A stretch of DNA of 46,574 bases from Flectonema sp. DT1601 (GCA_964019425.1 OZ025797.1:1364001-1410574), one strand, 5' to 3'. Counted from the first letter of the stretch, positions 23,479-46,574 are shown. A program made the numbers and translations. The notes: generated by a model from the sequence alone, not told the origin.

Positions 23479-23989
23479 AGATGTATATGAAAGAAAGAAG
23501 ATTTTTTATTTTTTTCACCTTCAGATCATTTCTCTTTTATTTTCTTTAGTTGTTTACAACCTGTTAGCCTCTGGGCAAGGTGGAGGCTGGAAGTCGAGCA
23601 CTTCCATCCAATACTATGAAACTACAATCAAATGTAAAAAAACCCGCAAACCCGCACTAGAGATACCCATCAGGCTCGCTTCGCTTGCGCAAAGTTATTT
23701 ATTTTTTGTTTTTCTGAATTAAGCTTGTTTTTCCTTTGCCTAAGCATGCAAAACTTAAAACGATGGCTAGGTAATAGTGAGTACGTCGCTTATTTCAAGT
23801 TGCCCATTTTTATCTTTCTGAACAACCTTATTTTACAACCAAGTCAGTTTTTATTCCCTGTCAGGCTTTTTGGCCTCTTTTGGGGCATCCTTTCTGTTGT
23901 TCTATCTCTCAGTTAATTTTAGTTTTCTGTTTCATTCAGCTTTTTCTTCGCAAACGCAAACTGAACTTAAAAACAAATAATCTTCTGCC

Positions 23990-28922: not shown

Positions 28923-29999
28923 AGTCCTCCAACACCATCGTCTTCCTCCCTAAAAAAAGTGTTGATTCATGCAGGCTGCTAAAAGAAGACTAATATCCTT
29001 GAAGCCATTTGCATGGGTCTCAGCTGTTAGACCCTCGTTTTTTTTCCGTCCTAGATATCTTTCCCCCCCGATTTTGAATAGATTTTCCTCTTCCCATTTT
29101 TTAATTTGTTACTTACAAAAACACCATGCCTTGTATCAGTTGCGAATTACAACATCTCTTACTCTTTGCAAAAGAAAAAAGGGATCCACCAGAAAGAGAT
29201 TCCATTTGAATTACATAGAAGATTTGAGCAATTTCTCGTATTTCTTGAAGTGATTTTTCGTGATCTGGTGAAGCTTTGTGCAATCTCGTTTGATTCAACA
29301 AATGAGAATGAGACCGTTTGGTTTTCATTTCTTGCTGAGTGATATGGTTATGTGCTGCCCAAATCCTTTGTGGTACGTTTCTAAAGCTTTTCGGTAAGCC
29401 CACAGTACAATTATAATGCTTTGGGCAACTGGGGGTGAACGATCCTCGGTACTGTTCCGGGGTTTTCTATTTTCTTTCGTGGAGTGTGGGCATATGGCAC
29501 ATGTGGTCGTATTATAAAGAACTTTTTTGAGCCTTTTGTCGTTGTTCTGTTAGTTTCTGTCCCACCCAGCTCTTAGGCAGCACCTTACATAGTAGGCCCC
29601 AATTTCCTTGGACCCAAAAAATCCCCAATACTGGTATTAAACCCGCAAAACCCGCAAACCTGCACTAGAGATACCCTTCCAGGCTCGCTTCGCTCACGCA
29701 AAGTTATTTATTTTTTGTACTTCTGAATTAAACTTGTTTTTCCTTTGCTTAAGTATGCTAAAATGAAAACTATGGTTAGGTTATAGTGGTGTGAGGCTTA
29801 TTTCAAGTTACCCATTTTTATGTTTCTGAACAACCTTATTTTACAACTAAGTCACCTCTGTTTTTATTCCCTGTTTCAGGCTTTTTGGTCTTTCCTTTTT
29901 TGGATCTCCAAACAAAAAGTGTCAGCGGGTATCGAAAATTGCAGGTTCGCACATCCAAAACCTGCAAACCCGCAAACCAACACTCAGACTGGTAATTGT

Positions 30000-30914
30000 C
30001 CTTCCATGCTTTGCACCTGTCGAAATAATAAAACTTAAAAACTACACACGCACCAATAACAAGCGATTACACTAGAACGCACGATTGCAAGAACACCCTG
30101 GTTCAAGGTGGCTCGCTGAGGCGGGGTAACTCGAAGTCCGTTTTCGTTGGACTCAGCTCCACCACGGGGTGGAGGGGTGAGGAGGGTGGGCTTCGAAAAC
30201 GTGAGTGTGAGAGAAAGAAGTGATCGAGCTGTATAAAGAATTTCTTTTTGAAAAAATAGAAGGCTAAAGAATATAAAAAATGTCTGTTGTTTTGTTCATT
30301 TTTCCAACTTCGGAATCATACACTTTTCTGTCTGATTCCTTTGATTATTTCTTTCCGCTGCAGACCACCTTATATGTCCACCCATATAGTAAGGTGGTCT
30401 GCAGCTTTGATGGCTTTTAATGTCTGCCCTAAGGCAATCTGCCTCAAGCACATTGATATATGACATGACCTTGAGGCCATGAAGATCCCACAATATCCAA
30501 TTCACCGCTATTCCAAACAATAACACCTCCCCACCCTTTGAGTCATCAACAAACAAACCTCTGCAGTCCTACCACTTTTTCTTTCAGGAAGAATCTTCCT
30601 AGTGCGCTGAACCGCCAGAATCCAACTTGAAAGTTCCTTCTTACCGACAAGGGGATGGTAACATGATCCTGCACCTGTATAGAGCCGTAGTTCAGGCGGT
30701 TTGTGATCCTGCGCATGTACTTCAGGGCAAACCAATACTTCTCGCATGTAGAAGGCGGCCCCCCAGCGATTCAAGCTGTGATGCACTCAAACCTGATAGA
30801 ACACACGTTGAAATCTTCCTCTTAATCTTAGAACCTAAAGAAACGACCTCATCACAGTGAGAGAACGAAACACCCAGAAATTCATAATCCTGCGGCAAGT
30901 TCACTGTGTCACTG
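30000..30914 (-). pseudogene. Decayed YR-retrotransposon fragment (RT C-terminus, RNase H and 3' region) of the same family, inverted
   Basis: Minus-strand YEFLGVSFSH...KIKRKISTCVLSGLSASQLESLGGRLLHA matches YTFLGADFNH...KIRRKISGVNLSNCTASQLESLGGRLVHA. FVDDSKGG and YINVLEA match RNase H motifs. Stops and frameshifts are present. Confidence 0.85.
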
Positions 30915-30945
30915 GCAAACCCGCAAACCCGCAAACCCGCAAACC
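30915..30945 (+). repeat. Short (CCCGCAAA)n tract, left flank of element 1
   Basis: GCAAACCCGCAAACCCGCAAACCCGCAAACC. Confidence 0.95.
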
Positions 30946-31132
30946 TAACTACAGCGGGGAACCGGAACTTCGAAGTACAGCCGTCAGCATCATTTTCTCG
31001 CCATCGTTTGGCGCATCGATACATCCTATCAGAATATATTTCATTTTATTTAGAGCTGTTTAACTCATGTTTACCTTTCCTTTTCTTTCAGCCGACGGGT
31101 TCGACCTATTAAACACTTAAACAAAAAGAAAA
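30946..31132 (+). repeat. Element 1 split direct repeat A1 (187 nt; A2 at 35332-35518)
   Basis: TAACTACAGCGGGG...ACAAAAAGAAAA is duplicated and ends immediately before the gag ATG. Confidence 0.95.
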
Positions 31133-32365
31133 ATGGGTGATACTTATGACTTCGAATTTCCTAACTCATTAGTTACGCTATGGGGAAATACCGGTGAGGA
31201 ACTGCTACCGAGAAGACACATAAATATGCCAGATGTATTGGGTCGGATCCCATGGGCTGATTGGACAAGTGAAGCAGGCAAAATGATGATGATAATGGTG
31301 CTTGCAAGGTGCCTTGGGTGTGATAGAGAAGTAATTCAAGGTATTTCACCGAGAAAGATTGCAATATTAATTGACGCGCTGCGAGGTCGGAATAATTTAA
31401 TTGTTGATAGCATCGCCGAAGCTGTACAGAACGGGACACTAGCAAGCCTTTCTGGGATGCCTCAAGATCCGTTTAGAAAAGTTGAAGCGATTGTAACGAC
31501 AGTTGCAAATAGACAAAGCCAGCAAGACGAGAATCTCACAGGACTGTATCGTAGTACCGCTCAAGAATTTGCGAAGCATGAAGGAGCGATCCGTGCAGTA
31601 AGTAGCGAAGCAGCAAATGCCACGGCCGCCGCGACAACAGCTGTTAAAAGTACCAATGATAGACAAGATTCGCTCGAGTCACGAACGGATGCTTTCGCAA
31701 CAGATGTACTGAATAGGCTGAACAGGCAGTCAAAGCTTATTGAGGAGCAGCAGGAAATGATCTCTAAGCAAGATAAACAAATTGCAAACTTGATGCGGGC
31801 GTCGTACAGATACGTCCACCCAATGAGCGCGCAACCGGCGCCTCGCACGACTGCACCTGAACAGCCGGAGCCAAGGGCTCGGTATGAAGAACCGACTTCC
31901 GCTGAAGAAACAAGAATTCACAATCCAGTCTCGCATACTGTCCGTTCCGTTGCGGAAGACCCTGATAGGTGGATGGAGTACGCAGATGCCAGTAACTTCC
32001 AACTGACGGAATTAATTCGAGAGTTGCGAACATGGGTTCCTAGCAAGAAAGGGGATCTGCAAGATGGGATGGAGGCGGTGATCGGTGCGATCGAAGTCAT
32101 CTTGCATCCGGAACGGGACGCTGAAGACGCTGTGCTTGCCCTTGCCGACAGCTTGCAGGTATTAAGGTGTAAGGCAAGGGATGGATGGAAGGCGGCTGAA
32201 GCTTTTAAAGGTGAACTCTGGAGGGAACAGAATGTTGCCCCACGTTATGCGAAAGCATGGCGGGCGTCTAGCACAGCTAAGGTGAAGTCAAACTACGCTG
32301 CGCGGAAAGAAGTCTCTAGAGGTTCAAAAAACGAAGCTTCAAAGGGCGGCAGGTCCCATCAATGA
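31133..32365 (+). CDS. Gag-like ORF1 (coiled-coil) of element 1
   Basis: First ORF after the A repeat, 410 aa, central coiled-coil and basic C-terminus; position equivalent to gag in YR elements. Confidence 0.8.
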   Translation: MGDTYDFEFPNSLVTLWGNTGEELLPRRHINMPDVLGRIPWADWTSEAGKMMMIMVLARCLGCDREVIQGISPRKIAILIDALRGRNNLIVDSIAEAVQNGTLASLSGMPQDPFRKVEAIVTTVANRQSQQDENLTGLYRSTAQEFAKHEGAIRAVSSEAANATAAATTAVKSTNDRQDSLESRTDAFATDVLNRLNRQSKLIEEQQEMISKQDKQIANLMRASYRYVHPMSAQPAPRTTAPEQPEPRARYEEPTSAEETRIHNPVSHTVRSVAEDPDRWMEYADASNFQLTELIRELRTWVPSKKGDLQDGMEAVIGAIEVILHPERDAEDAVLALADSLQVLRCKARDGWKAAEAFKGELWREQNVAPRYAKAWRASSTAKVKSNYAARKEVSRGSKNEASKGGRSHQ

Positions 32366-35070
32366 AAAGAACGCAAGTGGTTGGGGACGGGCGCACCAGC
32401 CACGCGAAAGTTAAAATGGCGCCGAAATTACCAGAAAAGTCCATTGTCCGGGTTGCAACCGACTTTTCCTACTACCCAAGAGACCCAACCGGAGCTGCCT
32501 ATTCTGACGAGGGAAATTTTAAACCATCTTGGGAAGAAAGACCGAACTCGCTCTGCACATACAGAGGACGGCGTCAGCGCGGAAGACGCTTCGAAGAAGC
32601 TGGCCGACGTGGTCGGGAAGATGTGGGCAGCGAGTACATCGGCGAAGAGACGAAACCTCTGGGCAAGACTCTTATCGTGGGCGGAAGTGAACAGCTTGCC
32701 AGTAAACGCGGAAACCGCTGTCTTATTCGTCCTTGCCACGAGGGTGAAACCACAAGGGCTACTTCAGTATGCAAAGTCCCTATCAGCAATCATGGAGTGT
32801 CTGGGAATGGACAATCGACAGCTACTAACTCTTGCCACCGCGCTACGAGCAGACGGCGCAGCTATTCCGACAAAGCAAGCACGGCCAATTACAAGGGAGG
32901 CTCTCATGGCCTGGGCGGGGTCATCATCGGACGAACTATGGCTGGCAACAATGATCTGCTGGAAGACAGCCTCAAGATGGGGCGAGGTTCAGGCACTCAC
33001 GTCGGAGCAATTCATTCGAGTGGGGAGGGAGGAAGTGATCATCGACTGGCTCAGCACGCCGAAGCTTCGATCAGCAAATCCATTCGTCCCGTCACGTTGG
33101 ACTGTGATACGGGGGAGCATGACGGGAGAGATCTGGTTGCTTTTAAAGGACAAGATTCCATTCGGGGCACTCACAAACAGAACAACAGAAATGTTGGATC
33201 GGATGTGGGGAAGGGATCCGAACATGAAGGGATTTACAGCACACTCGATAAAGCGCGGCGCAGCAACAGTACTTTACGAAAACCTTGCAAAGGGAGCGGA
33301 CTTACCGGAGCACATTATCTCTCGGACCCTGAAGCATGCGGAGAAGGAGACAGGGATATCATCAACATCGCTGAGGTACGGGGGTGCGCCAGCCGACATG
33401 GCAGTTGCTCTACAGACTTGGAAAGCCACCCAGCTCTTGTAAAACATGCACCGCATAGCATCTCGAGAAGGGGCCAGCGGACGAGGCTACCTGTCACAGC
33501 GGAAGAGAAGGCATCACCGCTTCATGTTTCTTCTATAAAACTAATGAATGTTGACGGGCTTCGAGGGAGGCTGAACGACTCGGCAAGGGTGCGGTTTGAT
33601 AGTGTCTGGGATATGGTATTCCCAAGGCAAACACCACCTTCGCGAAGCAGCACACACTCGAAACACTCAACTCTCCAGCCTAGCCATGCTGACGAACTGG
33701 TTAGTCGTTCTATCGCACGCCATGCTGAAGCAGGGGGGGTAATGCAAAATGTGCCGTTCACTGTTGTTGAGGAGAAGGCTGAGGGCTTACGCCAGCGATT
33801 CATACTCTGGACAAAGGGACTGAACGACTGGGGCGAGGGTACTGGGTACCAAGCCGCCGTTCCACTGAAGCACATCTCAGCTTATCTTGGTGCTGTCAAG
33901 CAGGGGTGCGCCACAACTCGTGACTTCAGAACAGGATTCTTTGCGATTGAAATTCCAACATATGCAAGACATCTCTTCAGGTTCCAAGATAGCTCTGGAA
34001 GATGGTTCGAGATGCAACGACTACCGATGGGACATATTGGCGCCCCGGAACTAATGCACACGCTCGCCGCATCCGCTGCAGGACATCCCGACTACGTTAG
34101 AAGTGACATTGCCGTGCACTCCGTTGGTATTGACATCTTTATTGACAATATAAGGTACACAGGGGAGCGGAAGCATATTCTCGATGCGACGACAGTGCTT
34201 GATGAGACTGCTTCGGGTATGTCTATTACATGGAAGGCTTCCGACTCACATACTGCTGCGACAACCTACACGTTCCTCGGGGCGGACTTTAATCATGAGC
34301 TTCGTACGGTAAGGGCTTCTGAGAAAATTCGACGCAAGATAAGTGGTGTGAATCTTTCCAACTGCACAGCTTCACAGCTCGAGTCACTCGGAGGAAGACT
34401 TGTTCACGCAAGCGCAATTGCAGGCGTTCCGATGGGTCAGTTCTGGTATGCAGTGAAGTTCCTTCGAAGGCTTGTCAACGGTCTCAATAGGGGGACCCGC
34501 CGTCCAGAAGCGAATGTTAACATCCCGCCGTCAGTTACCGCACAACTCTCTGCATGGTGCACTGCGGCTCTCAAGCAACAGACGATCTTCCAGCATGATA
34601 GCAGAAATTCAGTTACAACGTTCATCGACGCTTCTATGACGGGATGCGGCGGCGTTATTATTGATGACTCAACAGCTGAAATTATTATCCTCGGCGGCTC
34701 CTGGACGCCATCAGAAGCACGCCTCCACATCAACGTTCTCGAATCTCTTGCATTATCTAAGACGCTTTCTCAGCTTCCCGTAAGATATAAGGGTGGCACC
34801 CTATCACTCTGGATCGATAACACTTCTGTTGTTGGTGCACTTCGAAAGAAACTCTGTGCTAGGTCAGCAGACTTAAACAAGAATGTCGTTCTTTCTTCTA
34901 TAATATTCAAGAACCTCCAGCTCGATGTTAACATCGGATGGGTCGCGTCAGCTAACAATCCAGCTGACATCCCATCACGCCTCCCAGAACACAAAATCTC
35001 ATCGGCATCAACACTGCATACTGTCGAACTTGCGCTGCGGAGGTTTATTACAAGCGACGGGGTGGAGTGA
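32362..35070 (+). CDS. Reverse transcriptase-RNase H ORF of element 1; N-terminal ~360 codons overprint the YR
   Basis: RT motifs TRDFRTGFF, RLPMG, FIDNI, TFLG; DIRS-type RNase H motifs FIDAS, HINVLE, IDNTS, NPADIPSR. Confidence 0.92.
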   Translation: MKRTQVVGDGRTSHAKVKMAPKLPEKSIVRVATDFSYYPRDPTGAAYSDEGNFKPSWEERPNSLCTYRGRRQRGRRFEEAGRRGREDVGSEYIGEETKPLGKTLIVGGSEQLASKRGNRCLIRPCHEGETTRATSVCKVPISNHGVSGNGQSTATNSCHRATSRRRSYSDKASTANYKGGSHGLGGVIIGRTMAGNNDLLEDSLKMGRGSGTHVGAIHSSGEGGSDHRLAQHAEASISKSIRPVTLDCDTGEHDGRDLVAFKGQDSIRGTHKQNNRNVGSDVGKGSEHEGIYSTLDKARRSNSTLRKPCKGSGLTGAHYLSDPEACGEGDRDIINIAEVRGCASRHGSCSTDLESHPALVKHAPHSISRRGQRTRLPVTAEEKASPLHVSSIKLMNVDGLRGRLNDSARVRFDSVWDMVFPRQTPPSRSSTHSKHSTLQPSHADELVSRSIARHAEAGGVMQNVPFTVVEEKAEGLRQRFILWTKGLNDWGEGTGYQAAVPLKHISAYLGAVKQGCATTRDFRTGFFAIEIPTYARHLFRFQDSSGRWFEMQRLPMGHIGAPELMHTLAASAAGHPDYVRSDIAVHSVGIDIFIDNIRYTGERKHILDATTVLDETASGMSITWKASDSHTAATTYTFLGADFNHELRTVRASEKIRRKISGVNLSNCTASQLESLGGRLVHASAIAGVPMGQFWYAVKFLRRLVNGLNRGTRRPEANVNIPPSVTAQLSAWCTAALKQQTIFQHDSRNSVTTFIDASMTGCGGVIIDDSTAEIIILGGSWTPSEARLHINVLESLALSKTLSQLPVRYKGGTLSLWIDNTSVVGALRKKLCARSADLNKNVVLSSIIFKNLQLDVNIGWVASANNPADIPSRLPEHKISSASTLHTVELALRRFITSDGVE
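32366..33442 (+). CDS. Tyrosine recombinase of element 1 (in the gag frame, open from the gag UGA; start uncertain)
   Basis: Catalytic-type motifs KTASRWGEV (R), AHSIKRGAA (H..R), LKH (H), SLRYG (Y). Confidence 0.9.
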   Translation, partial: KERKWLGTGAPATRKLKWRRNYQKSPLSGLQPTFPTTQETQPELPILTREILNHLGKKDRTRSAHTEDGVSAEDASKKLADVVGKMWAASTSAKRRNLWARLLSWAEVNSLPVNAETAVLFVLATRVKPQGLLQYAKSLSAIMECLGMDNRQLLTLATALRADGAAIPTKQARPITREALMAWAGSSSDELWLATMICWKTASRWGEVQALTSEQFIRVGREEVIIDWLSTPKLRSANPFVPSRWTVIRGSMTGEIWLLLKDKIPFGALTNRTTEMLDRMWGRDPNMKGFTAHSIKRGAATVLYENLAKGADLPEHIISRTLKHAEKETGISSTSLRYGGAPADMAVALQTWKATQLL

Positions 35071-35329
35071 GGCAGGCCAACCGGTGCCGCTACTCGGACT
35101 GCTCACTCACATGGCTTTCTGCCACGCTCAGCCGATAGCGACCACCACCTGCGGTCTACTTACCTCACTTCGTGAAAAGAATTTGTGAACTCTTATAGTT
35201 TAATTTCTCTATCCTTCCTAGTGATAGACGAGCTACTTAGTTTTATCCATAGTTTCATGTTTTACTATTACATTTCTTCTACTCTTATCTTTCCTTCCTT
35301 TCTTTCAGGCTGTACAGGAGTTATGGTTC
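35071..35329 (+). repeat. Element 1 split direct repeat B1 (259 nt; B2 at 35538-35796)
   Basis: GGCAGGCCAACCGG...TTATGGTTC is duplicated and starts right after the RT stop codon. Confidence 0.95.
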
Positions 35330-35796
35330 CCTAACTACAGCGGGGAACCGGAACTTCGAAGTACAGCCGTCAGCATCATTTTCTCGCCATCGTTTGGCGC
35401 ATCGATACATCCTATCAGAATATATTTCATTTTATTTAGAGCTGTTTAACTCATGTTTACCTTTCCTTTTCTTTCAGCCGACGGGTTCGACCTATTAAAC
35501 ACTTAAACAAAAAGAAAACCCACCCACCGACCCCCTCGGCAGGCCAACCGGTGCCGCTACTCGGACTGCTCACTCACATGGCTTTCTGCCACGCTCAGCC
35601 GATAGCGACCACCACCTGCGGTCTACTTACCTCACTTCGTGAAAAGAATTTGTGAACTCTTATAGTTTAATTTCTCTATCCTTCCTAGTGATAGACGAGC
35701 TACTTAGTTTTATCCATAGTTTCATGTTTTACTATTACATTTCTTCTACTCTTATCTTTCCTTCCTTTCTTTCAGGCTGTACAGGAGTTATGGTTC

Positions 35797-37086
35797 CCCG
35801 CAAACCCGCAAACCCGCAAACCCGCAAACCCGCAAACCCGCAAACCCGCAAACCCGCAAACCCGCAAACCCGCAAACCCGCAAACCCGCAAACCCGCAAA
35901 CCCGCAAACCCGCAAACCCGCAAACCCGCAAACCCGCAAACCCGCAAACCCGCAAACCCGCAAACCCGCAAACCCGCAAACCCGCAAACCCGCAAACCCG
36001 CAAACCCGCAAACCCGCAAACCCGCAAACCCGCAAACCCGCAAACCCGCAAACCCGCAAACCCGCAAACCCGCAAACCCGCAAACCCGCAAACCCGCAAA
36101 CCCGCAAACCCGCAAACCCGCAAACCCGCAAACCCGCAAACCCGCAAACCCGCAAACCCGCAAACCCGCAAACCCGCAAACCCGCAAACCCGCAAACCCG
36201 CAAACCCGCAAACCCGCAAACCCGCAAACTCGCAAACCCGCAAACCCGCAAACCCGCAAACCCGCAAACCCGCAAACCCGCAAACCCGCAAACCCGCAAA
36301 CCCGCAAACCCGCAAACCCGCAAACCCGCAAACCCGCAAACCCGCAAACCCGCAAACCCGCAAACCCGCAAACCCGCAAACCCGCAAACCCGCAAACCCG
36401 CAAACCCGCAAACCCGCAAACCCGCAAACCCGCAAACCCGCAAACCCGCAAACCCGCAAACCCGCAAACCCGCAAACCCGCAAACCCGCAAACCCGCAAA
36501 CCCGCAAACCCGCAAACCCGCAAACCCGCAAACCCGCAAACCCGCAAACCCGCAAACCCGCAAACCCGCAAACCCGCAAACCCGCAAACCCGCAAACCCG
36601 CAAACCCGCAAACCCGCAAACCCGCAAACCCGCAAACCCGCAAACCCGCAAACCCGCAAACCCGCAAACCCGCAAACCCGCAAACCCGCAAACCCGCAAA
36701 CCCGCAAACCCGCAAACCCGCAAACCCGCAAACCCGCAAACCCGCAAACCCGCAAACCCGCAAACCCGCAAACCCGCAAACCCGCAAACCCGCAAACCCG
36801 CAAACCCGCAAACCCGCAAACCCGCAAACCCGCAAACCCGCAAACCCGCAAACCCGCAAACCCGCAAACCCGCAAACCCGCAAACCCGCAAACCCGCAAA
36901 CCCGCAAACCCGCAAACCCGCAAACCCGCAAACCCGCAAACCCGCAAACCCGCAAACCCGCAAACCCGCAAACCCGCAAACCCGCAAACCCGCAAACCCG
37001 CAAACCCGCAAACCCGCAAACCCGCAAACCCGCAAACCCGCATACCCGCAAACCCGCAAACCCGCAAACCCGCAAACCCGCAAACC
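35797..37086 (+). repeat. (CCCGCAAA)n telomere-like octamer array, about 161 units
   Basis: Perfect 8-bp tandem repeat with two single-base variants seen (36230, 37043). Confidence 0.99.
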
Positions 37087-37298
37087 AACACTCAGACTGG
37101 GAACTGCACAAAAGGCAAGTGAAGTACGATATACTCTTATAATATTTTCCTTTTCATTGATCAATATTAAATGTTGTTTAAGTATTATTTCTGTTCTCTT
37201 GTCTTTATTTCAGAATTATCATTTCACTGTTTCTCTTATCATTATTTCATTGTACTCATTTATTCAGGCTAGGAAGGGGTCTTAACGCAAAGCGTTTT
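37087..37298 (+). repeat. Element 2 split direct repeat A1 (212 nt; A2 at 42459-42670)
   Basis: AACACTCAGACTGGG...GCAAAGCGTTTT is duplicated. Confidence 0.95.
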
Positions 37299-37306
37299 AA
37301 GAAAAT

Positions 37307-39343
37307 ATGCCGGATCATTATTATGATTTTTCGGTGCCCGCTAGTATCGCCGGGAAGGCGAAGGCGATACTAGGGGAGGTGGGGCGCATGAAGGTGTCCC
37401 TGGAGGCAAGGAACCGCAGGTTCCAACAAGCGATGGGGCTGTCCGGTGGGGACAGCATTTGGATGCCCACCTGTCGGGAGGACAGCAATTCATCCCGCAG
37501 AGCTGACAACGACAAGTTGTTAGCTCTGTGTCTCGACATCCCGGTGGGGTTGGCGAGAACGCTGTCGGCACGGACTGTGTTCGTGCTGTTGACGGGCCTG
37601 GTCGAGGTCAACGCCGATGCGGTGAAGGAGAGGATGAGAAGGCTGGGGACGATGACGGGCTCGGCACCCTCGGTTCCGTCGCCGATGACGGGGGGGAGGT
37701 CGACCCTCATGGTGATGGAGGTGGACTCGATGGAACAGGTGCCACCGCCGGTTTTCGCGGAACCGGTTTCGGGAACGAACCCCAGTTTGGAGGGGTTGGC
37801 TCGCGCGGGAGGCATGGCCTACCGGGAGCTGAAGGGTCAGGCTGTGGCCCACCAATCGGTGACGGAGCAGTTGGCTGCTCGCCAAGCACAACACACGACG
37901 GCCGGGGAGAACCTGGAAGTCACCGTGAGCCGGGTGGCCCAGGTGATCAACGAGCAAGCCCGGAGGCAGGTGAAGGCGGAAGAACACACCGCCATGGTTG
38001 AAGGTGCGGCCGAAGAGGCTTTCAACTCCGTAGCGGATAGGCAGGAAGAGCTCGGGGAGGCTGTGATGCAGATGGCGAAGGAAAAGGCCAGACAGGACGG
38101 GGTGCTGAAGACCGAGCAGCAGAAGCGGGAGGAGTTGCGGCAGCGACTCGAGCTGCAGCAAAACCTGCTGGACCAACAGAGGGAGGAGCAGGAATTACAG
38201 AAGCAGCAGCAACAAAAGCAAGAACTGCAGAGTCAATTGGCACAAGAACAGCAACAGAAGCAGATTCAACAACAGCAAGCTCAGCAACAACAGTTCCAAG
38301 AGGATCAACGGAAGTTGGAGGAGCAGTTAAGGCTTCGGGACGAGCTGCTGAAGCAACAACAAGTGCAACAACAGGAACAGCAACGCCAGCTGGACCAGCA
38401 CAAGCTGGCGGAACAAGCGAAGAGCAACGAGCAGCAGCTTCAGCAGCAGCAGCTCCAGCAACAGCAGCTGCTGCAACAGGAGCAGAACAAGTTTCAGCAA
38501 CAGGAACAACGGAGGTTGGAGGAGAGTCTGAACGCACAGCAACAGCAGATGACTCAACAACAGCAGGCGCTGCAGCAGCAGGCGCTACAGCAGCAGGGTC
38601 TGCTGCTTCAACAACGGCAAGCACCGACAGCGCAGGACGGGCTGAGCACGGTGTTATCGCAGATGGCGACAACGCTCCACCACCTAGTACCGAAGACGAA
38701 GGTGGTCGCTTTCCCGGCAGGTATGTGCAGGGGATCGAAGGTGAAGCGCGGGTCGGACAAGGGATTCGTGGTGGATCTCGACGGTGTGACCGGGGAGGTG
38801 GTCCTGGGATTGATTGGTAGGCGGGAGTCATTCTTTGTGCTCACGCCTGAACAATTTAAAGAAGAAGGTTGGCTGTTGGCCCATTGGAATGCGGAGGTGC
38901 CTGCGGTGCAGGTGCCATTGGAACAGGCAGCGGCGCAGCATACGTTGTGGGCTGGCTACGGTGGGCGAGGTGACGTGGAGATGTCCCTCCTCCGGCGGGC
39001 GATCACGGAGAAGTTCGGAGAGGGTGGTTCGCAAGTTGCGAAGCAGATGGTAGGTCTGTTGGCGAAGACGGTGGAGGCGACCATCAACGGTGGGGAGGAA
39101 GTGACCTTAGGGTTGCTTCACGAGATGCTGGAGTTCCAACTGATTCGGGGGGAGCACGGGAGCAGGAGTGGCGACTTGTACCTGAAGGCGCTGGCTGAGA
39201 GCTGGGAGGACCCCACCACCGCTGCGGCGAGGAAGGTAGCGTTGAAGGGTAGCAGGCCAGCCGGTTTGGTGAGGGGGACGACAACGACCGGACAACAGCC
39301 ACAACACTTTCCAAAAAACGGGGGGCGTGGTCGGGGGAATTGA
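37307..39343 (+). CDS. Gag-like ORF1 of element 2 with a long Gln-rich coiled coil
   Basis: 678 aa. N-terminus MPDHYYDFSVPAS resembles MGDTYDFEFPNS of element 1, and LLALCLDIP resembles VLARCLGCD. Confidence 0.8.
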   Translation: MPDHYYDFSVPASIAGKAKAILGEVGRMKVSLEARNRRFQQAMGLSGGDSIWMPTCREDSNSSRRADNDKLLALCLDIPVGLARTLSARTVFVLLTGLVEVNADAVKERMRRLGTMTGSAPSVPSPMTGGRSTLMVMEVDSMEQVPPPVFAEPVSGTNPSLEGLARAGGMAYRELKGQAVAHQSVTEQLAARQAQHTTAGENLEVTVSRVAQVINEQARRQVKAEEHTAMVEGAAEEAFNSVADRQEELGEAVMQMAKEKARQDGVLKTEQQKREELRQRLELQQNLLDQQREEQELQKQQQQKQELQSQLAQEQQQKQIQQQQAQQQQFQEDQRKLEEQLRLRDELLKQQQVQQQEQQRQLDQHKLAEQAKSNEQQLQQQQLQQQQLLQQEQNKFQQQEQRRLEESLNAQQQQMTQQQQALQQQALQQQGLLLQQRQAPTAQDGLSTVLSQMATTLHHLVPKTKVVAFPAGMCRGSKVKRGSDKGFVVDLDGVTGEVVLGLIGRRESFFVLTPEQFKEEGWLLAHWNAEVPAVQVPLEQAAAQHTLWAGYGGRGDVEMSLLRRAITEKFGEGGSQVAKQMVGLLAKTVEATINGGEEVTLGLLHEMLEFQLIRGEHGSRSGDLYLKALAESWEDPTTAAARKVALKGSRPAGLVRGTTTTGQQPQHFPKNGGRGRGN

Positions 39344-42159
39344 ATCCTGGCCGTAAACAAACCCGTAGAGGGCGTCGCGGGAGGAGGGGCGGCAAGTGGG
39401 CCGCGGCCTCTCCTGGTCGGCGCGGTGCCAGCTGGAATGCGACGTGGGTCAACGAGTGTCGTCGCACCGGAACCTTGCGCGAGTACGCAAGAGGGATTCC
39501 GAAAACGAAGATGCGCTGCGCAGGTGGAAGTTCCGTCGGTTTTCGGGAAGGTGGTCCTCGAACACATCCGGAGGGACGATCGACACCGTGGAGACACGAT
39601 GGAAGTAAGGGTGGACCACGACACAGCGTTGGAGCGTCTGGGGGTGGTCGTCGCGTCGATGTGGGCGGACGAAACCTCGTCGAAGCGCAGAAACCTCTGG
39701 GGTCGGTTGGAACAATGGGCGTTGGCTCAGCGTCTGCCAATGTCTGCCGAAACAGCTGCGTTGTTCGTGCTGGCCACAGACGTGAGACCGCAGGGACAGC
39801 TGCAATACGCAAAGGCGCTGTCCGGGATCTACCGGCACCTTGGTCTGGAAAACCAACCGCTCCTCAGCCTGGCAAGCGCGCTGAGGGCAAAAGGGGCGGC
39901 CGTTCCGCGTTCGCAAGCAGTTCCCATGTCAAAGGAGCAGCTGTTGGGTTGGGCGAGAAGTCTAACGGGACGTTTGAGGCTCGCGGCGTTGGTGTGTTGG
40001 AAGTCGGCTTCCCGGTGGGGAGAAGTGCACGTGCTGACGTCGGCGCATTTCGTTCTGGTGGAGGACGCGGAAGTGATCGTGGACTGGGGGACGTCGCCAA
40101 AACACCGGAGAGCAAACCCGTTCGTGCCGTCCCGTTGGGCGGTCTTGCGGGGGGATCTGGTCGGGGAGATCGCAAGCTTGTTTCGGGAGCTGGCTCCTTT
40201 CGATCGGCTGACGGATGTCACCACCGAGCGGTTGGCAGAGTTGTGGCGGGGGACTCCGGGAATGCGGGGTTTTACGGGCCACTCGATAAAACGAGGCGCC
40301 GCCGCGGCTTTGATGCGAGCGATGGCCGAGGGAAGGCTCACAGAAGGGTACCTGGTATCACGACTGTTGAAGCACGCCGAAGACGGAACCAACATCTCTG
40401 CAACAACGATCAGGTATTCGTCGGATTTCGTGGACACCGCCCGAGCGCTGCAAACGTGGAAGGTCACCATCCTGCTGTAGTTGCGGAGGACGTTGACGAC
40501 GAAGGTGAGGCGATGGAAGCGGTGGCGCGGCTGTCTCCGTGCACGACGCACAGCATCATCAGGAGGGGCAAGCGGACAAGACTGCCGTCGACGGCGGAGG
40601 AACGTTCGTCGCCTTTGCATGTGAGTGGCGTTGAGACGATGGATGTTGACGGACTCAGACGTAGGATGACTGATGTTGCGAGGGATAGGTTCGATCAGGT
40701 GTGGAACTTGACCTTTTATCCGGAGGTGGGGAAGTTGAGTCGCTCGTCGTCTACTTCATCTTTCGCTGGGAGGCACGCTGCGGAGTTGCTGAGGAACGGG
40801 ATCGCGCGAGCTGCGAGTGGACCGGGGAGAGCGGTGAACGTTCCATTCACCGTGGTGGAGGAGAAGCCGGAGGGACTGCGGCAGCGGTTCATCCTTTGGA
40901 CGAGGGATGCGAATGGTTGGGCCGAAGAAGCTTACGAAGCTCACGTCCCGCTGTTCCACATCTCAAAATATTTGGATCGGGTTCTGACCGAGGTTGGCTC
41001 GACACGGGATTTCAAGACAGGTTTTTATGCTATTGAAATCCCGGAGGAAGCGAGAGATCTCTTCCGATTCAAGACGACGGAGGGTGAATGGTTCGAGCTG
41101 TGCCGTTTACCGATGGGGCATGTCTGCGCGCCGGAGCTGATGCACTCTTTGGCAGCGGCGGCTGCGGGGGATCCAGCTTACGTGCGACGTCAGTGGGCTG
41201 CCAGGGATGTTGGCGTTGACGTGTTCATCGACAACATTCGGTACACGGGGACGGAAGGCGCGGTGTTGGCGGCGACGGTGAATCTCGATGCTGCGGCGGC
41301 GGATTTCCGTCTTACATGGAAGCCGTCTGACTCGAATACGGCGGTGAGCAAGTACACATTTTTGGGTGTGGACTTTGACCACGAGGCGTCGTCGGTCATG
41401 CCGTCAGCGAAGATCCGGCGGAAGTTGGCGGCGGTGGACTTGTCGTCTGTGACGGCGAGTCAGTTGGAGTCGATGGCTGGGAGGCTGATGCATGCGTCGG
41501 CGATCGCTGCGGCGTCTCCGGGGAAATACTGGTATGCCTTGAAGTTCTTGCGGAGGTTGTCGAACGGTTTGAACCGCGGGGTGAGGCAGGTGCATGATGT
41601 AGTGTCGGTCCCTGTTTCGGTCGCGATGGAGTTGCGCAGTTGGTCGGCTGCCGCTGTGACGAGGAGGGTGGTTGCGCGGGAGCCAGATCAAGATGGGTTC
41701 ACGACGTTCGTGGATGCGTCGTTGAGAGGTTGGGGTGGAGTGGTTGTGAACGACAGGACGGCCGAGGTTACTGTCTTGGGGGATGCGTGGGGTCCTTCGG
41801 AACAGTCGCTCCACATCAATGTTCTCGAGGGGATGGCGTTCAGGAACACGGTCTCGGGGATGCCGGTTTGCTGTGATGGCAAGCGAATGTCCATCTGGAT
41901 CGACAACACGTCAGTCATTGGCGTAGCACGGAAGAAGATGTCAGTCCGATCGCAACGGCTGAACGATGCGGTCGTGCAGGCCATCGATGTGCTGGCAGAC
42001 AGAAAGGTTAGTTTCTGTATTGCTTATGTGAAGTCAGCGCTGAACCCAGCAGACTTGCCATCGAGGGTGGATCCAGGAGTTATAGGCTCATCGGAGCATC
42101 AGCGGGAAGTTGAACTTGCGGTGAGGGCCTTTCTGACTCGCGATGTGGTGGTGGTGTGA
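39340..42159 (+). CDS. Reverse transcriptase-RNase H ORF of element 2; N-terminal part overprints the YR
   Basis: TRDFKTGFY, RLPMG, FIDNI, TFLG; RNase H motifs FVDAS, HINVLE, IDNTS, NPADLPSR. Confidence 0.92.
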   Translation: MNPGRKQTRRGRRGRRGGKWAAASPGRRGASWNATWVNECRRTGTLREYARGIPKTKMRCAGGSSVGFREGGPRTHPEGRSTPWRHDGSKGGPRHSVGASGGGRRVDVGGRNLVEAQKPLGSVGTMGVGSASANVCRNSCVVRAGHRRETAGTAAIRKGAVRDLPAPWSGKPTAPQPGKRAEGKRGGRSAFASSSHVKGAAVGLGEKSNGTFEARGVGVLEVGFPVGRSARADVGAFRSGGGRGSDRGLGDVAKTPESKPVRAVPLGGLAGGSGRGDRKLVSGAGSFRSADGCHHRAVGRVVAGDSGNAGFYGPLDKTRRRRGFDASDGRGKAHRRVPGITTVEARRRRNQHLCNNDQVFVGFRGHRPSAANVEGHHPAVVAEDVDDEGEAMEAVARLSPCTTHSIIRRGKRTRLPSTAEERSSPLHVSGVETMDVDGLRRRMTDVARDRFDQVWNLTFYPEVGKLSRSSSTSSFAGRHAAELLRNGIARAASGPGRAVNVPFTVVEEKPEGLRQRFILWTRDANGWAEEAYEAHVPLFHISKYLDRVLTEVGSTRDFKTGFYAIEIPEEARDLFRFKTTEGEWFELCRLPMGHVCAPELMHSLAAAAAGDPAYVRRQWAARDVGVDVFIDNIRYTGTEGAVLAATVNLDAAAADFRLTWKPSDSNTAVSKYTFLGVDFDHEASSVMPSAKIRRKLAAVDLSSVTASQLESMAGRLMHASAIAAASPGKYWYALKFLRRLSNGLNRGVRQVHDVVSVPVSVAMELRSWSAAAVTRRVVAREPDQDGFTTFVDASLRGWGGVVVNDRTAEVTVLGDAWGPSEQSLHINVLEGMAFRNTVSGMPVCCDGKRMSIWIDNTSVIGVARKKMSVRSQRLNDAVVQAIDVLADRKVSFCIAYVKSALNPADLPSRVDPGVIGSSEHQREVELAVRAFLTRDVVVV
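39344..40480 (+). CDS. Tyrosine recombinase of element 2 (in the gag frame, open from the gag UGA)
   Basis: KSASRWGEV, GHSIKRGAA, LKH, TIRYS; colinear with the element 1 YR. Confidence 0.9.
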   Translation: MLAVNKPVEGVAGGGAASGPRPLLVGAVPAGMRRGSTSVVAPEPCASTQEGFRKRRCAAQVEVPSVFGKVVLEHIRRDDRHRGDTMEVRVDHDTALERLGVVVASMWADETSSKRRNLWGRLEQWALAQRLPMSAETAALFVLATDVRPQGQLQYAKALSGIYRHLGLENQPLLSLASALRAKGAAVPRSQAVPMSKEQLLGWARSLTGRLRLAALVCWKSASRWGEVHVLTSAHFVLVEDAEVIVDWGTSPKHRRANPFVPSRWAVLRGDLVGEIASLFRELAPFDRLTDVTTERLAELWRGTPGMRGFTGHSIKRGAAAALMRAMAEGRLTEGYLVSRLLKHAEDGTNISATTIRYSSDFVDTARALQTWKVTILL

Positions 42160-42456
42160 CGGTGCCAACCTTTCCCCCGGCCGATTTTAGGCCGTGGTCG
42201 AACATGCAATTGTACAAGCATGCGGTGCCGTTTTCCCATTACCCCTTCGTGAATGAGTTGCTTCGTGTTAACTTGGTTCTCCTTTGTCTTTCTCATCATC
42301 ATTTTATTCAGCTGAGAAAATGGGAAAGCTAAGACGACATGAGGCTTATGATGCTAGTATCTTGTTATGTGGTTAATTCGTGTGATTGTTTTTATCAGAC
42401 TCTCCTTTATGACTTTTCCTTTTCAACAGTACTTCACTGAGAATGCCGAGCGGTTC
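42155..42456 (+). repeat. Element 2 split direct repeat B1 (302 nt; B2 at 42688-42989)
   Basis: TGTGACGGTGCCAACC...GAGCGGTTC is duplicated. Confidence 0.95.
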
Positions 42457-42989
42457 CCAACACTCAGACTGGGAACTGCACAAAAGGCAAGTGAAGTACG
42501 ATATACTCTTATAATATTTTCCTTTTCATTGATCAATATTAAATGTTGTTTAAGTATTATTTCTGTTCTCTTGTCTTTATTTCAGAATTATCATTTCACT
42601 GTTTCTCTTATCATTATTTCATTGTACTCATTTATTCAGGCTAGGAAGGGGTCTTAACGCAAAGCGTTTTCCCACCCGCCCTACCCCTGTGACGGTGCCA
42701 ACCTTTCCCCCGGCCGATTTTAGGCCGTGGTCGAACATGCAATTGTACAAGCATGCGGTGCCGTTTTCCCATTACCCCTTCGTGAATGAGTTGCTTCGTG
42801 TTAACTTGGTTCTCCTTTGTCTTTCTCATCATCATTTTATTCAGCTGAGAAAATGGGAAAGCTAAGACGACATGAGGCTTATGATGCTAGTATCTTGTTA
42901 TGTGGTTAATTCGTGTGATTGTTTTTATCAGACTCTCCTTTATGACTTTTCCTTTTCAACAGTACTTCACTGAGAATGCCGAGCGGTTC

Positions 42990-45900
42990 CCCGCAAACCC
43001 GCAAACCCGCAAACCCGCAAACCCGCAAACCCGCAAACCCGCAAACCCGCAAACCCGCAAACCCGCAAACCCGCAAACCCGCAAACCCGCAAACCCGCAA
43101 ACCCGCAAACCCGCAAACCCGCAAACCCGCAAACCCGCAAACCCGCAAACCCGCAAACCCGCAAACCCGCAAACCCGCAAACCCGCAAACCCGCAAACCC
43201 GCAAACCCGCAAACCCGCAAACCCGCAAACCCGCAAACCCGCAAACCCGCAAACCCGCAAACCCGCAAACCCGCAAACCCGCAAACCCGCAAACCCGCAA
43301 ACCCGCAAACCCGCAAACCCGCAAACCCGCAAACCCGCAAACCCGCAAACCCGCAAACCCGCAAACCCGCAAACCCGCAAACCCGCAAACCCGCAAACCC
43401 GCAAACCCGCAAACCCGCAAACCCGCAAACCCGCAAACCCGCAAACCCGCAAACCCGCAAACCCGCAAACCCGCAAACCCGCAAACCCGCAAACCCGCAA
43501 ACCCGCAAACCCGCAAACCCGCAAACCCGCAAACCCGCAAACCCGCAAACCCGCAAACCCGCAAACCCGCAAACCCGCAAACCCGCAAACCCGCAAACCC
43601 GCAAACCCGCAAACCCGCAAACCCGCAAACCCGCAAACCCGCAAACCCGCAAACCCGCAAACCCGCAAACCCGCAAACCCGCAAACCCGCAAACCCGCAA
43701 ACCCGCAAACCCGCAAACCCGCAAACCCGCAAACCCGCAAACCCGCAAACCCGCAAACCCGCAAACCCGCAAACCCGCAAACCCGCAAACCCGCAAACCC
43801 GCAAACCCGCAAACCCGCAAACCCGCAAACCCGCAAACCCGCAAACCCGCAAACCCGCAAACCCGCAAACCCGCAAACCCGCAAACCCGCAAACCCGCAA
43901 ACCCGCAAACCCGCAAACCCGCAAACCCGCAAACCCGCAAACCCGCAAACCCGCAAACCCGCAAACCCGCAAACCCGCAAACCCGCAAACCCGCAAACCC
44001 GCAAACCCGCAAACCCGCAAACCCGCAAACCCGCAAACCCGCAAACCCGCAAACCCGCAAACCCGCAAACCCGCAAACCCGCAAACCCGCAAACCCGCAA
44101 ACCCGCAAACCCGCAAACCCGCAAACCCGCAAACCCGCAAACCCGCAAACCCGCAAACCCGCAAACCCGCAAACCCGCAAACCCGCAAACCCGCAAACCC
44201 GCAAACCCGCAAACCCGCAAACCCGCAAACCCGCAAACCCGCAAACCCGCAAACCCGCAAACCCGCAAACCCGCAAACCCGCAAACCCGCAAACCCGCAA
44301 ACCCGCAAACCCGCAAACCCGCAAACCCGCAAACCCGCAAACCCGCAAACCCGCAAACCCGCAAACCCGCAAACCCGCAAACCCGCAAACCCGCAAACCC
44401 GCAAACCCGCAAACCCGCAAACCCGCAAACCCGCAAACCCGCAAACCCGCAAACCCGCAAACCCGCAAACCCGCAAACCCGCAAACCCGCAAACCCGCAA
44501 ACCCGCAAACCCGCAAACCCGCAAACCCGCAAACCCGCAAACCCGCAAACCCGCAAACCCGCAAACCCGCAAACCCGCAAACCCGCAAACCCGCAAACCC
44601 GCAAACCCGCAAACCCGCAAACCCGCAAACCCGCAAACCCGCAAACCCGCAAACCCGCAAACCCGCAAACCCGCAAACCCGCAAACCCGCAAACCCGCAA
44701 ACCCGCAAACCCGCAAACCCGCAAACCCGCAAACCCGCAAACCCGCAAACCCGCAAACCCGCAAACCCGCAAACCCGCAAACCCGCAAACCCGCAAACCC
44801 GCAAACCCGCAAACCCGCAAACCCGCAAACCCGCAAACCCGCAAACCCGCAAACCCGCAAACCCGCAAACCCGCAAACCCGCAAACCCGCAAACCCGCAA
44901 ACCCGCAAACCCGCAAACCCGCAAACCCGCAAACCCGCAAACCCGCAAACCCGCAAACCCGCAAACCCGCAAACCCGCAAACCCGCAAACCCGCAAACCC
45001 GCAAACCCGCAAACCCGCAAACCCGCAAACCCGCAAACCCGCAAACCCGCAAACCCGCAAACCCGCAAACCCGCAAACCCGCAAACCCGCAAACCCGCAA
45101 ACCCGCAAACCCGCAAACCCGCAAACCCGCAAACCCGCAAACCCGCAAACCCGCAAACCCGCAAACCCGCAAACCCGCAAACCCGCAAACCCGCAAACCC
45201 GCAAACCCGCAAACCCGCAAACCCGCAAACCCGCAAACCCGCAAACCCGCAAACCCGCAAACCCGCAAACCCGCAAACCCGCAAACCCGCAAACCCGCAA
45301 ACCCGCAAACCCGCAAACCCGCAAACCCGCAAACCCGCAAACCCGCAAACCCGCAAACCCGCAAACCCGCAAACCCGCAAACCCGCAAACCCGCAAACCC
45401 GCAAACCCGCAAACCCGCAAACCCGCAAACCCGCAAACCCGCAAACCCGCAAACCCGCAAACCCGCAAACCCGCAAACCCGCAAACCCGCAAACCCGCAA
45501 ACCCGCAAACCCGCAAACCCGCAAACCCGCAAACCCGCAAACCCGCAAACCCGCAAACCCGCAAACCCGCAAACCCGCAAACCCGCAAACCCGCAAACCC
45601 GCAAACCCGCAAACCCGCAAACCCGCAAACCCGCAAACCCGCAAACCCGCAAACCCGCAAACCCGCAAACCCGCAAACCCGCAAACCCGCAAACCCGCAA
45701 ACCCGCAAACCCGCAAACCCGCAAACCCGCAAACCCGCAAACCCGCAAACCCGCAAACCCGCAAACCCGCAAACCCGCAAACCCGCAAACCCGCAAACCC
45801 GCAAACCCGCAAACCCGCAAACCCGCAAACCCGCAAACCCGCAAACCCGCAAACCCGCAAACCCGCAAACCCGCAAACCCGCAAACCCGCAAACCCGCAA

Positions 45901-46574
45901 ACCCGCAAACCCGCAAACCCGCAAACCCGCAAACCCGCAAACCCGCAAACCCGCAAACCCGCAAACCCGCAAACCCGCAAACCCGCAAACCCGCAAACCC
46001 GCAAACCCGCAAACCCGCAAACCCGCAAACCCGCAAACCCGCAAACCCGCAAACCCGCAAACCCGCAAACCCGCAAACCCGCAAACCCGCAAACCCGCAA
46101 ACCCGCAAACCCGCAAACCCGCAAACCCGCAAACCCGCAAACCCGCAAACCCGCAAACCCGCAAACCCGCAAACCCGCAAACCCGCAAACCCGCAAACCC
46201 GCAAACCCGCAAACCCGCAAACCCGCAAACCCGCAAACCCGCAAACCCGCAAACCCGCAAACCCGCAAACCCGCAAACCCGCAAACCCGCAAACCCGCAA
46301 ACCCGCAAACCCGCAAACCCGCAAACCCGCAAACCCGCAAACCCGCAAACCCGCAAACCCGCAAACCCGCAAACCCGCAAACCCGCAAACCCGCAAACCC
46401 GCAAACCCGCAAACCCGCAAACCCGCAAACCCGCAAACCCGCAAACCCGCAAACCCGCAAACCCGCAAACCCGCAAACCCGCAAACCCGCAAACCCGCAA
46501 ACCCGCAAACCCGCAAACCCGCAAACCCGCAAACCCGCAAACCCGCAAACCCGCAAACCCGCAAACCCGCAAAC
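42990..46574 (+). repeat. (CCCGCAAA)n octamer array, at least 448 units, runs off the window end
   Basis: Uninterrupted 8-bp tandem repeat. Confidence 0.99.

Follow-up and report, generated by a model that had tools for sequence, protein, structure and literature searches.

Two tyrosine recombinase retroelements at one phase and orientation of an octamer tandem array in Flectonema sp. DT1601

Organization of the locus

The stretch of DNA analysed here, 46,574 nucleotides from Flectonema sp. DT1601 (GCA_964019425.1 OZ025797.1:1364001-1410574; hereafter the window), carries toward its end a (CCCGCAAA)n octamer array in three + strand stretches and, set into this array, two retroelements termed E1 (30944-35798) and E2 (37085-42991). 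Both are complete, lie in the same orientation and follow the same split-direct-repeat plan, A1-gag-YR/ORF3-B1-A2-spacer-B2, in which A and B are the repeats, YR is a tyrosine recombinase open reading frame (ORF) and ORF3 is a third ORF with a reverse transcriptase/RNase H (RT/RH) part. Their coding regions span 31133-35070 in E1 and 37307-42159 in E2. The features are as follows.

30915-30945, + strand: short octamer array left of E1, 3.9 units
30944-31132, + strand: E1 A1, 189 nt including the CC core; ends at the gag ATG; contains a pyrimidine tract followed by AG
31133-32365, + strand: E1 gag-like ORF, 410 residues, stop TGA
32366-33442, + strand: E1 tyrosine recombinase ORF, in the gag frame, right behind the gag TGA
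32362-35070, + strand: E1 ORF3, in the -1 frame relative to gag; its N-terminal third overprints the YR ORF and its C-terminal part of about 460 residues is the RT/RNase H
35071-35331, + strand: E1 B1, 261 nt, terminus GGTTCCC
35330-35518, + strand: E1 A2; the B1/A2 joint forms the dyad GGTTCCC-N11-GGGAACC
35519-35537, + strand: E1 A2-B2 spacer, 19 nt, C-rich, starting CCCACCC
35538-35798, + strand: E1 B2, identical to B1
35797-37086, + strand: octamer array between E1 and E2, 161 units, with two variant bases (36230 and 37043)
37085-37298, + strand: E2 A1, 214 nt including the CC core
37307-39343, + strand: E2 gag-like ORF, 678 residues with a Q-rich middle, stop TGA
39344-40480, + strand: E2 tyrosine recombinase ORF, in the gag frame, behind the TGA
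39340-42159, + strand: E2 ORF3, in the -1 frame, with an overprinted N-terminal part and RT/RNase H
42155-42458, + strand: E2 B1, 304 nt, terminus GGTTCCC
42457-42670, + strand: E2 A2; joint GGTTCCC-N12-GGGAAC
42671-42687, + strand: E2 A2-B2 spacer, 17 nt, C-rich, starting CCCACCC
42688-42991, + strand: E2 B2, identical to B1
42990-46574, + strand: octamer array right of E2, 448 perfect units, running off the window

All four pairs of A and B repeats are 100% identical, and no inverted repeat pair of at least 30 bases was found between 30800 and 43100. A first-pass annotation of this DNA had described two intact YR retroelements with the order gag-YR-RT/RH and split direct repeats, a description on which ORFs, predicted fold and repeats agree. 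It had also proposed recent activity, which is borne out by the identical repeats of both elements, marking them as young, and by near-identical copies on other contigs.

Compared between the two elements, the repeats align no better than shuffled sequences: the global alignment score was 10.5 for the A repeats (shuffles, 9.8 ± 3.2) and 14.5 for the B repeats (shuffles, 11.4 ± 3.0). The earlier statement that the A and B repeats are otherwise unrelated thus holds for the overall alignment but goes too far in detail, as the elements have in common GGTTCCC at the B end, GGGAAC at 11-12 bases into A, and the CCCACCC with which both spacers begin. Both B repeats also open with a common GCCAACC/GGTGCC motif; this motif and the CCCACCC spacer starts are a possible priming or strand-transfer signal. 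In each A and B repeat, moreover, a long pyrimidine tract followed by AG lies about 20-95 bases before the 3′ end of the repeat (approximately 31070-31092, 35285-35309, 37195-37213 and 42415-42432). These sites look like spliced-leader acceptors and would bear on where element RNAs start. The E2 gag contains a glutamine-rich, CAG/CAA-rich part (38191-38635) made of 11 imperfect 46-base repeats, and the E1 gag has no such part.

Insertion junctions and phase

The left junctions read ..CGCAAACC/TAAC.. in E1 and ..CGCAAACC/AAC.. in E2, the internal B1/A2 joints read ..GGTTCCC/TAAC.. and ..GGTTCCC/AAC.., respectively, and the right junction is ..GGTTCCC/CGCAAA.. in both elements. The left, internal and right strings given by the first-pass annotation are thereby confirmed base for base. 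B1 and A2 overlap by exactly two bases, CC, in both elements. When an element and one CC were excised in silico, the flanks closed to a 48-base string with a perfect 8-base period, for E1 as for E2. Nothing has therefore been lost or duplicated on insertion, save possibly a whole number of units. The common phase noted earlier is real, and it extends to a common orientation. A second random insertion would share both phase and orientation with a probability of 1/16. The previously proposed conservative crossover with a 2-nt core is compatible with these data, the junctions being those that such an exchange would give.

Upstream of E1, two degraded sequences were identified.

29967-29992, + strand: relic left junction of E2 type: degenerate octamers ending AAACC and, right behind them, bases 1-14 of an E2-type A
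30376-30913, - strand: inverted, degenerate, frameshifted and 5′-truncated RT/RNase H remnant, found by tblastn with P0074 (68-89% identity), P0100, P0064, P0002 and P0004

The relic matches the E2 joint at 16/16 bases with phase and orientation unchanged, which adds a further 1/16 if it is independent. The RT/RH remnant comes from a relative in another clade, with P0074 as its best match. The relic breaks off where the GGGAAC arm begins, a position that may mark a second cleavage point.

Because GGTTCCC at the B end and GGGAAC(C) at 11 (E1) or 12 (E2) bases into A are reverse complements of each other, the internal joint is a dyad. In the window, the pattern GGTTCCC-N9-14-GGGAAC is confined to the two internal joints (expected number 0.01; three matches when both strands of E1 are counted).

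Proteins encoded by E1 and E2 and their predicted expression

The recombinase ORFs of E1 and E2 are 52% identical and the ORF3 products 44% identical over 826 aligned residues, with higher identity in the RT/RH part, while no similarity was detectable between the gag-like ORFs. Searches of Pfam with single ORFs gave no match at E ≤ 0.01. Weak single-sequence matches of ORF3 were to RVT_1 (E 0.0087) and RT_RNaseH (E 0.039). A profile of the RT/RH part matched the RT/RNase H of Ty3 and a caulimovirus-type polyprotein with E about 1e-3, and Pfam RT_RNaseH was matched by 13 of 29 family members (best E 3.8e-7). ORF3 accordingly encodes an RT/RNase H of the type found in long terminal repeat (LTR) elements.

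The recombinase matched nothing in Pfam at E ≤ 1, and its Box I resembles that of phage integrases weakly (E 0.051). A structural model built on 19 homologues (predicted local distance difference test, pLDDT, 81.5) was compared with known structures using Foldseek. This comparison revealed 36 matches at E ≤ 0.001, the best being Cre over both domains (E 6e-6, probability 1.0), then the Tn1549 integrase and Xer. The alignment retains R199, K228, H288, H319 and Y333, residues 288-294 read HSIKRGA, and W194, A197, S198, R199, W200, K228, H288, S289, K291, G293 and A294 are invariant in the 19 sequences. By this fold, both elements encode a Cre-like two-domain tyrosine recombinase.

The recombinase ORF lies in the gag frame directly behind the TGA (32363-32365 in E1, 39341-39343 in E2), and in E1 no ATG precedes its conserved part, which suggests that the E1 recombinase would be made by stop read-through or another unusual start. 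The -1 frame contains no stop over the whole YR ORF, against means of 9.2 (E1) and 8.2 (E2) in synonymous shuffles, of which at most 1/5000 were as low. About 1.07-1.13 kb (32366-33439 in E1, 39344-40477 in E2) is in this way coding for two proteins. A slippery heptamer, A_AAA_AAC, is present in the gag frame 28-37 bases before the gag stop (32326-32332 in E1, 39313-39319 in E2). The 100 nt downstream of it fold no better than shuffled sequences (z = 0.11 and -0.85), in a test that does not cover pseudoknots. Three products are predicted: gag alone, when translation ends at the TGA; a gag-ORF3 (RT/RH) fusion, when ribosomes slip into the -1 frame at A_AAA_AAC; and the recombinase, when the gag TGA is read through or bypassed in an equivalent way.

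The octamer array

All three + frames of the array give the same peptide period, PANPQTRK, so gene callers occasionally output array ORFs. The C-rich strand runs 5′ to 3′ from unique DNA into the array, the reverse of the polarity of a chromosome-end telomere, and public ORFs place short octamer arrays, flanked by ORFs to the left and right, within contigs as long as 3.5 Mb. The array is therefore taken for a dispersed tandem repeat on which elements land, and is probably not a chromosome-end telomere here. The literature searched contained no description of TTTGCGGG as a telomere repeat, and Rfam and tRNA scans of the window gave no match. In two sequencing runs, X1 and X2, octamer words reached depths of 1057 and 7312, respectively, against 2 for the element; depth here does not stand for copy number. 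X1 contains 0.41 of the words and X2 0.06, and no RNA run was listed as containing them. Contigs from these runs aligned to E1 at a depth of only 2, with one loose end at 35792, which corresponds to the E2 B2 end.

Outside the big arrays, octamer words occur 10 times on the + strand of the window and never on the - strand. Two octamer units followed by CTAGAG are found at eight sites, every one on the + strand; two of them are at 23641 and 29640, and the others stand behind the individual copies of a 630-residue ORF that is repeated in tandem. These sites belong to a module of about 200 bases, which opens with an A-run and AAACCCGCAAACCCGCA, then CTAGAGATACCC.

895-910, 4556-4571, 8217-8232, 11878-11893, 15514-15529, 19175-19190, 23641-23656 and 29640-29665, + strand: eight copies of the module of about 200 bases

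The border of the module, CCCGCA followed by codons compatible with CTAGA, recurs in public array ORFs and may be the tail-to-target junction of another retroposon. The tandem units themselves, six of 3,661 bases each, lie at 1-22741; their 630-residue ORF carries a P-loop-like GIPGSGKT motif and matched no Pfam family, the sole match, AAA_16, being below threshold (E 0.15).

Related elements and array junctions at other loci

Among named proteins, hypothetical ones of Diplonema papillatum come closest, with about 45-52% identity, and word-based searches returned only Diplonema-type proteins and proteins without a name. By these matches the host is probably a diplonemid or a near relative of one. 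The exact sequence of E1 ORF3 is also found in a public protein record, and its cluster comprises four variants on four contigs. The exact E2 gag sequence occurs on four contigs, and the E2 ORF3 cluster has 11 members. Some near-identical copies on other contigs may represent both haplotypes of a single locus. A rapid tree of 43 rows (preliminary tree search, with support from the Shimodaira-Hasegawa-like approximate likelihood ratio test, SH-aLRT, only) placed E1 and E2 within one well-supported clade of seven rows, apart from the D. papillatum clades. All seven rows come from one source. The shared target is on this basis most simply inherited. The "two divergent families" of the first-pass annotation are thus overstated as to divergence.

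To describe array borders elsewhere, 13 public array ORFs with exact PANPQTRK arrays were assembled, all from one source and on contigs of 0.15-3.5 Mb. Four came from one search, and nine were among 19 sequences fetched after a search of representative sequences with the array ORF, which gave 1782 matches at E ≤ 0.001, mostly unrelated low-complexity sequences; the 19 were those with at least 63% identity among the best 150. The remaining 10 of the 19 carry other repeats and were dropped. None of the flanks of the 13 array ORFs occurs within the window.

Left borders of the B-end type were found in two of the 13 (P0186 and P0245). P0186 starts MPSGS/PQTRK, which is the E2 B2 end in that frame, and lies on a 300,098-base contig that also bears variants of the E2-family gag and ORF3. 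Its array is only 162 bases long and is followed by other sequence, which makes it a separate locus. In P0245 the left border reads ..ARF/PANP, against ..ERF/PANP in E2. Exits from the array of the form RKP/x, that is AAACC/N, were seen in three ORFs (P0078, P0186 and P0245), where the codons are compatible with GGGAAC at 11, 7 and 12 bases in, respectively.

Among the remaining borders, a right border QTR/TR.. is present in three array ORFs and KPA/LEGEH in three others. The latter (P0110, P0111, P0175) can be either an A start with GGGGAAC 10 bases in, or the common border CCCGCA/CTAGAG. Two of the public proteins, P0110 and P0112, are ORFs of non-LTR retrotransposons that run into octamer arrays, one with a PD-D/ExK-like endonuclease tail (by reading) and the other with Pfam RVT_1. 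Unrelated retroelements thus also end in, or target, the octamer repeat. In the public cluster of P0127 (18 members), the left flank ..RHFVPLKPVITR recurs on at least 12 contigs in front of arrays of 144-270 bases, and the array reads as if it were the tail of an abundant repeat family.

The search was extended to other sequence collections. A metagenome scan with three octamer units revealed 79 loci with arrays of 24-108 bases and unrelated flanks, none with a GGTTCC junction, and a prokaryote genome scan with five units revealed 10 unrelated loci with arrays of 28-86 bases. In tblastn searches of these 89 loci, none of the gag, YR and ORF3 proteins of E1 and E2 was among the matches listed, where only the repeat parts of P0110 and P0112 appeared. 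Viral contigs contained no match to the octamer pattern, and no RT/RH relative was found in them with one protein or a 29-sequence profile.

Mode of insertion

Taken together, we consider it likely, with a probability of roughly 0.65, that E1 and E2 were put into the array by conservative recombination between a B/A joint and the array, with CC as the likely crossover. Element RNA would be copied into cDNA whose ends are joined B to A, the internal B1/A2 joint being the template or the record of this event. The recombinase would bind the inverted arms GGTTCCC and GGGAAC(C) around the B/A joint, and strand exchange with AAA[CC]CGC in the array would leave CC on both sides and no further duplication. 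This agrees with published descriptions of relatives, among them DIRS elements, for which the available part of PMC7192593 proposes use of a short sequence found in both circle junction and target. At least five related families of one clade would share the target by descent. Two parts of this scheme we infer: that the recombinase recognises the octamer, and that the donor is a circle.

Several observations weigh against this mechanism. Beyond CC, the donor joint and the target agree (by reading) at only 3/18 bases on one side and 1/7 on the other, and the array target has no dyad; classical tyrosine recombinases need 6-8 identical bases between the cuts. The position of the second catalytic arginine is occupied by the invariant K291, with R292 next to it in 17 of the 19 sequences. 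A full-length circle would have two identical B/A joints; recombination at the other joint would yield permuted elements, and neither copy is permuted. The cDNA intermediates of Dictyostelium DIRS-1 are mostly linear and single-stranded according to the part of PMC7192593 available. At the DNA level the evidence consists of two full copies and one relic, and junctions at other loci were read from peptides, in which third codon positions and the exact break base are not readable. Two truncated relatives meet arrays elsewhere than at the core site: the ORF3 of P0078 is cut at ..ALKF, an internal point, and joined to an irregular array, and the RT remnant abuts the short array (30913/30915) at an internal, non-canonical point. 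Finally, borders of other types were found on the left of 10 and on the right of seven of the 13 array ORFs. Most of these arrays are thus not bounded by E1/E2-type elements, which explain only some array borders. Arrays are many and of several origins, and the other borders do not contradict insertion by B/A joint recombination.

The same junctions could have arisen had the copies spread among arrays by homology, through recombination or gene conversion of transcripts or DNA segments with flanking octamers; the phase would then go back to a single insertion in the ancestor of the clade. Perfect homology extends over hundreds of bases in the arrays, E1 and E2 are members of one clade, and the P0186 junction at another locus is equally expected if junctions are inherited. 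We nevertheless hold this to be unlikely: the internal B1/A2 joint contains no octamer unit and its overlap is exactly the CC of the outer junctions, which implies that the copied unit ends at the CC bases; the dyad arms are conserved although the rest of A and B cannot be aligned; and the recombinase ORF is intact in both elements. It is still less probable that the common phase is a coincidence or a product of later array dynamics, with insertion anywhere in C-rich repeats and flanks reshaped by unequal exchange or slippage. The third junction in the relic, the restored period at both elements, the matching peptide signatures elsewhere and the conserved terminal motifs all argue against it, even though only two full DNA copies are available, 1/16 is not a small number, and arrays do change, as the two variant bases, the irregular units of P0078 and the truncated elements abutting arrays indicate.

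Precise ends and continuous phase also speak against a scenario in which the array is telomere-like and element RNA was reverse transcribed at chromosome ends from primers provided by the G-rich strand, with repeats being added again afterwards. Such re-addition would keep the phase in only 1 of 8 cases per element, complete split repeats and an intact recombinase favour recombination, and the C-rich strand has the opposite polarity, with short arrays inside contigs of up to 3.5 Mb. We regard this route as very improbable, although E1 and E2 have their sense strand on the C-rich strand, as it would predict, non-LTR elements run into arrays too (P0110, P0112), TATE is telomeric, and the octamer unit resembles the plant-type CCCTAAA motif. 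An assembly artefact, with elements misplaced into collapsed or expanded simple repeats, seems hardly credible. Long perfect arrays are difficult to assemble and the last one runs off the window, but the four junctions agree with two internal joints that are independent of the array, the same peptide junction is found on another contig, and an X1 contig joins the E2 B2 end to the array, with the reservation that X1 may be the source sample and so not independent.

A broader proposal can be put forward only tentatively, as something we think possible but doubtful. In what is probably a diplonemid, the whole clade would be specialised on one nucleotide of a dispersed octamer that also forms the ends or tails of other retroposons of the genome, and a complete natural recombination system would be readable: an enzyme of Cre type, a donor joint whose 7-base inverted arms enclose a spacer of 11-12 bases, and an asymmetric target with only CC in common with the donor.

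Implications

To our knowledge, integration by tyrosine recombinase retrotransposons has never been reconstituted, and the circle model is old; the only experimental system we know of, Dictyostelium DIRS-1, inserts into its own copies, which obscures the target. E1 and E2, both young, differ in their arms and have the same target, and their sequence shows donor joint, target and product down to the single base. With a compact Cre-like enzyme and readable sites, an assay in vitro or on plasmids is easy to design. If the complete system is as proposed, this would be the first eukaryotic retroelement recombinase with a donor site and a target site that are both known in sequence and open to reconstitution. 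The elements would also extend VIPER/TATE-type elements with repeat-phase targeting beyond the kinetoplastids, and hiding in a tandem repeat appears as a habit common to unrelated retroposons of the same genome.

The literature searched held no description of diplonemid tyrosine recombinase elements; the only mention, in the part of the source available, is the annotation "TATE DNA transposon" for an expanded gene family of D. papillatum (PMC10161547). The novelty claimed in the first-pass annotation was nonetheless too high, given that fixed-position insertion of TATE (PMC2696322, PMC6681497) and the short core of DIRS elements (PMC7192593) had already been described in the available parts of these papers.

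Comparison with known systems

SART and TRAS of Bombyx, in TTAGG repeats, and CRE and SLACS, in spliced-leader arrays, likewise enter a tandem repeat at a single nucleotide and with a single orientation, and several lineages share a repeat as a safe site, as far as the partial accounts consulted go. They differ in relying on endonuclease nicking and target-primed reverse transcription, with no recombinase.

Cre/loxP shares with E1 and E2 the two-domain Cre-like fold and a donor joint with inverted arms around a spacer. The spacer, however, is 11-12 bases long instead of 6-8, and the octamer partner has no dyad and only CC in common with the donor.

Like Ngaro-like and PAT-like elements, E1 and E2 have split direct repeats, a tyrosine recombinase and a short core common to joint and target. 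In Ngaro and PAT the YR usually follows the RT/RH, unlike the gag-YR-RT/RH order found here. DIRS-1-like elements differ by their inverted terminal repeats and internal complementary region, in contrast to the lack of inverted repeat pairs of at least 30 bases in E1 and E2.

With VIPER, the elements share three ORFs in the same order and split repeats that are close in length (in Trypanosoma cruzi 173 bp for A and 219 bp for B, both 100% identical, according to the available part of PMC6681497), and the A2-spacer-B2 unit of E1 and E2 corresponds to SIRE. In VIPER and TATE, too, the YR ORF overlaps the RT/RH ORF, according to the accessible parts of PMC12278014 and PMC6681497. No fixed target is reported for VIPER in the sections consulted, and the proteins of E1 and E2 are too far from Pfam for naming. 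By YR, RT/RH, gene order, overlap and split repeats, E1 and E2 fit the VIPER-like subgroup (VIPER/TATE) of the DIRS order, an assignment made on structural grounds.

The closest likeness in behaviour is to TATE of Leishmania braziliensis, which, in the available parts of PMC2696322 and PMC6681497, inserts at one fixed position of telomeric GGGTTA with flanking TT and forms tandem clusters. Gag-like, YR and RT/RH genes, overlapped ORFs, split repeats in the order A1..B1-A2-B2, tandem clusters in a short repeat, a fixed position in the unit and a flanking dinucleotide (TT in TATE, CC in E1 and E2) are common to both. E1 and E2 differ in having a host that is not a kinetoplastid and an octamer in place of GGGTTA as target, in an array whose polarity and dispersed short copies speak against a terminal telomere, and in the use of the octamer site by at least two families. 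TATE was compared by description; the copy sequences of PMC6681497 contain no telomere repeats. Judged by analogy of behaviour, E1 and E2 are to a different euglenozoan lineage, and to a different target repeat, what TATE is to Leishmania and its telomeric hexamer.

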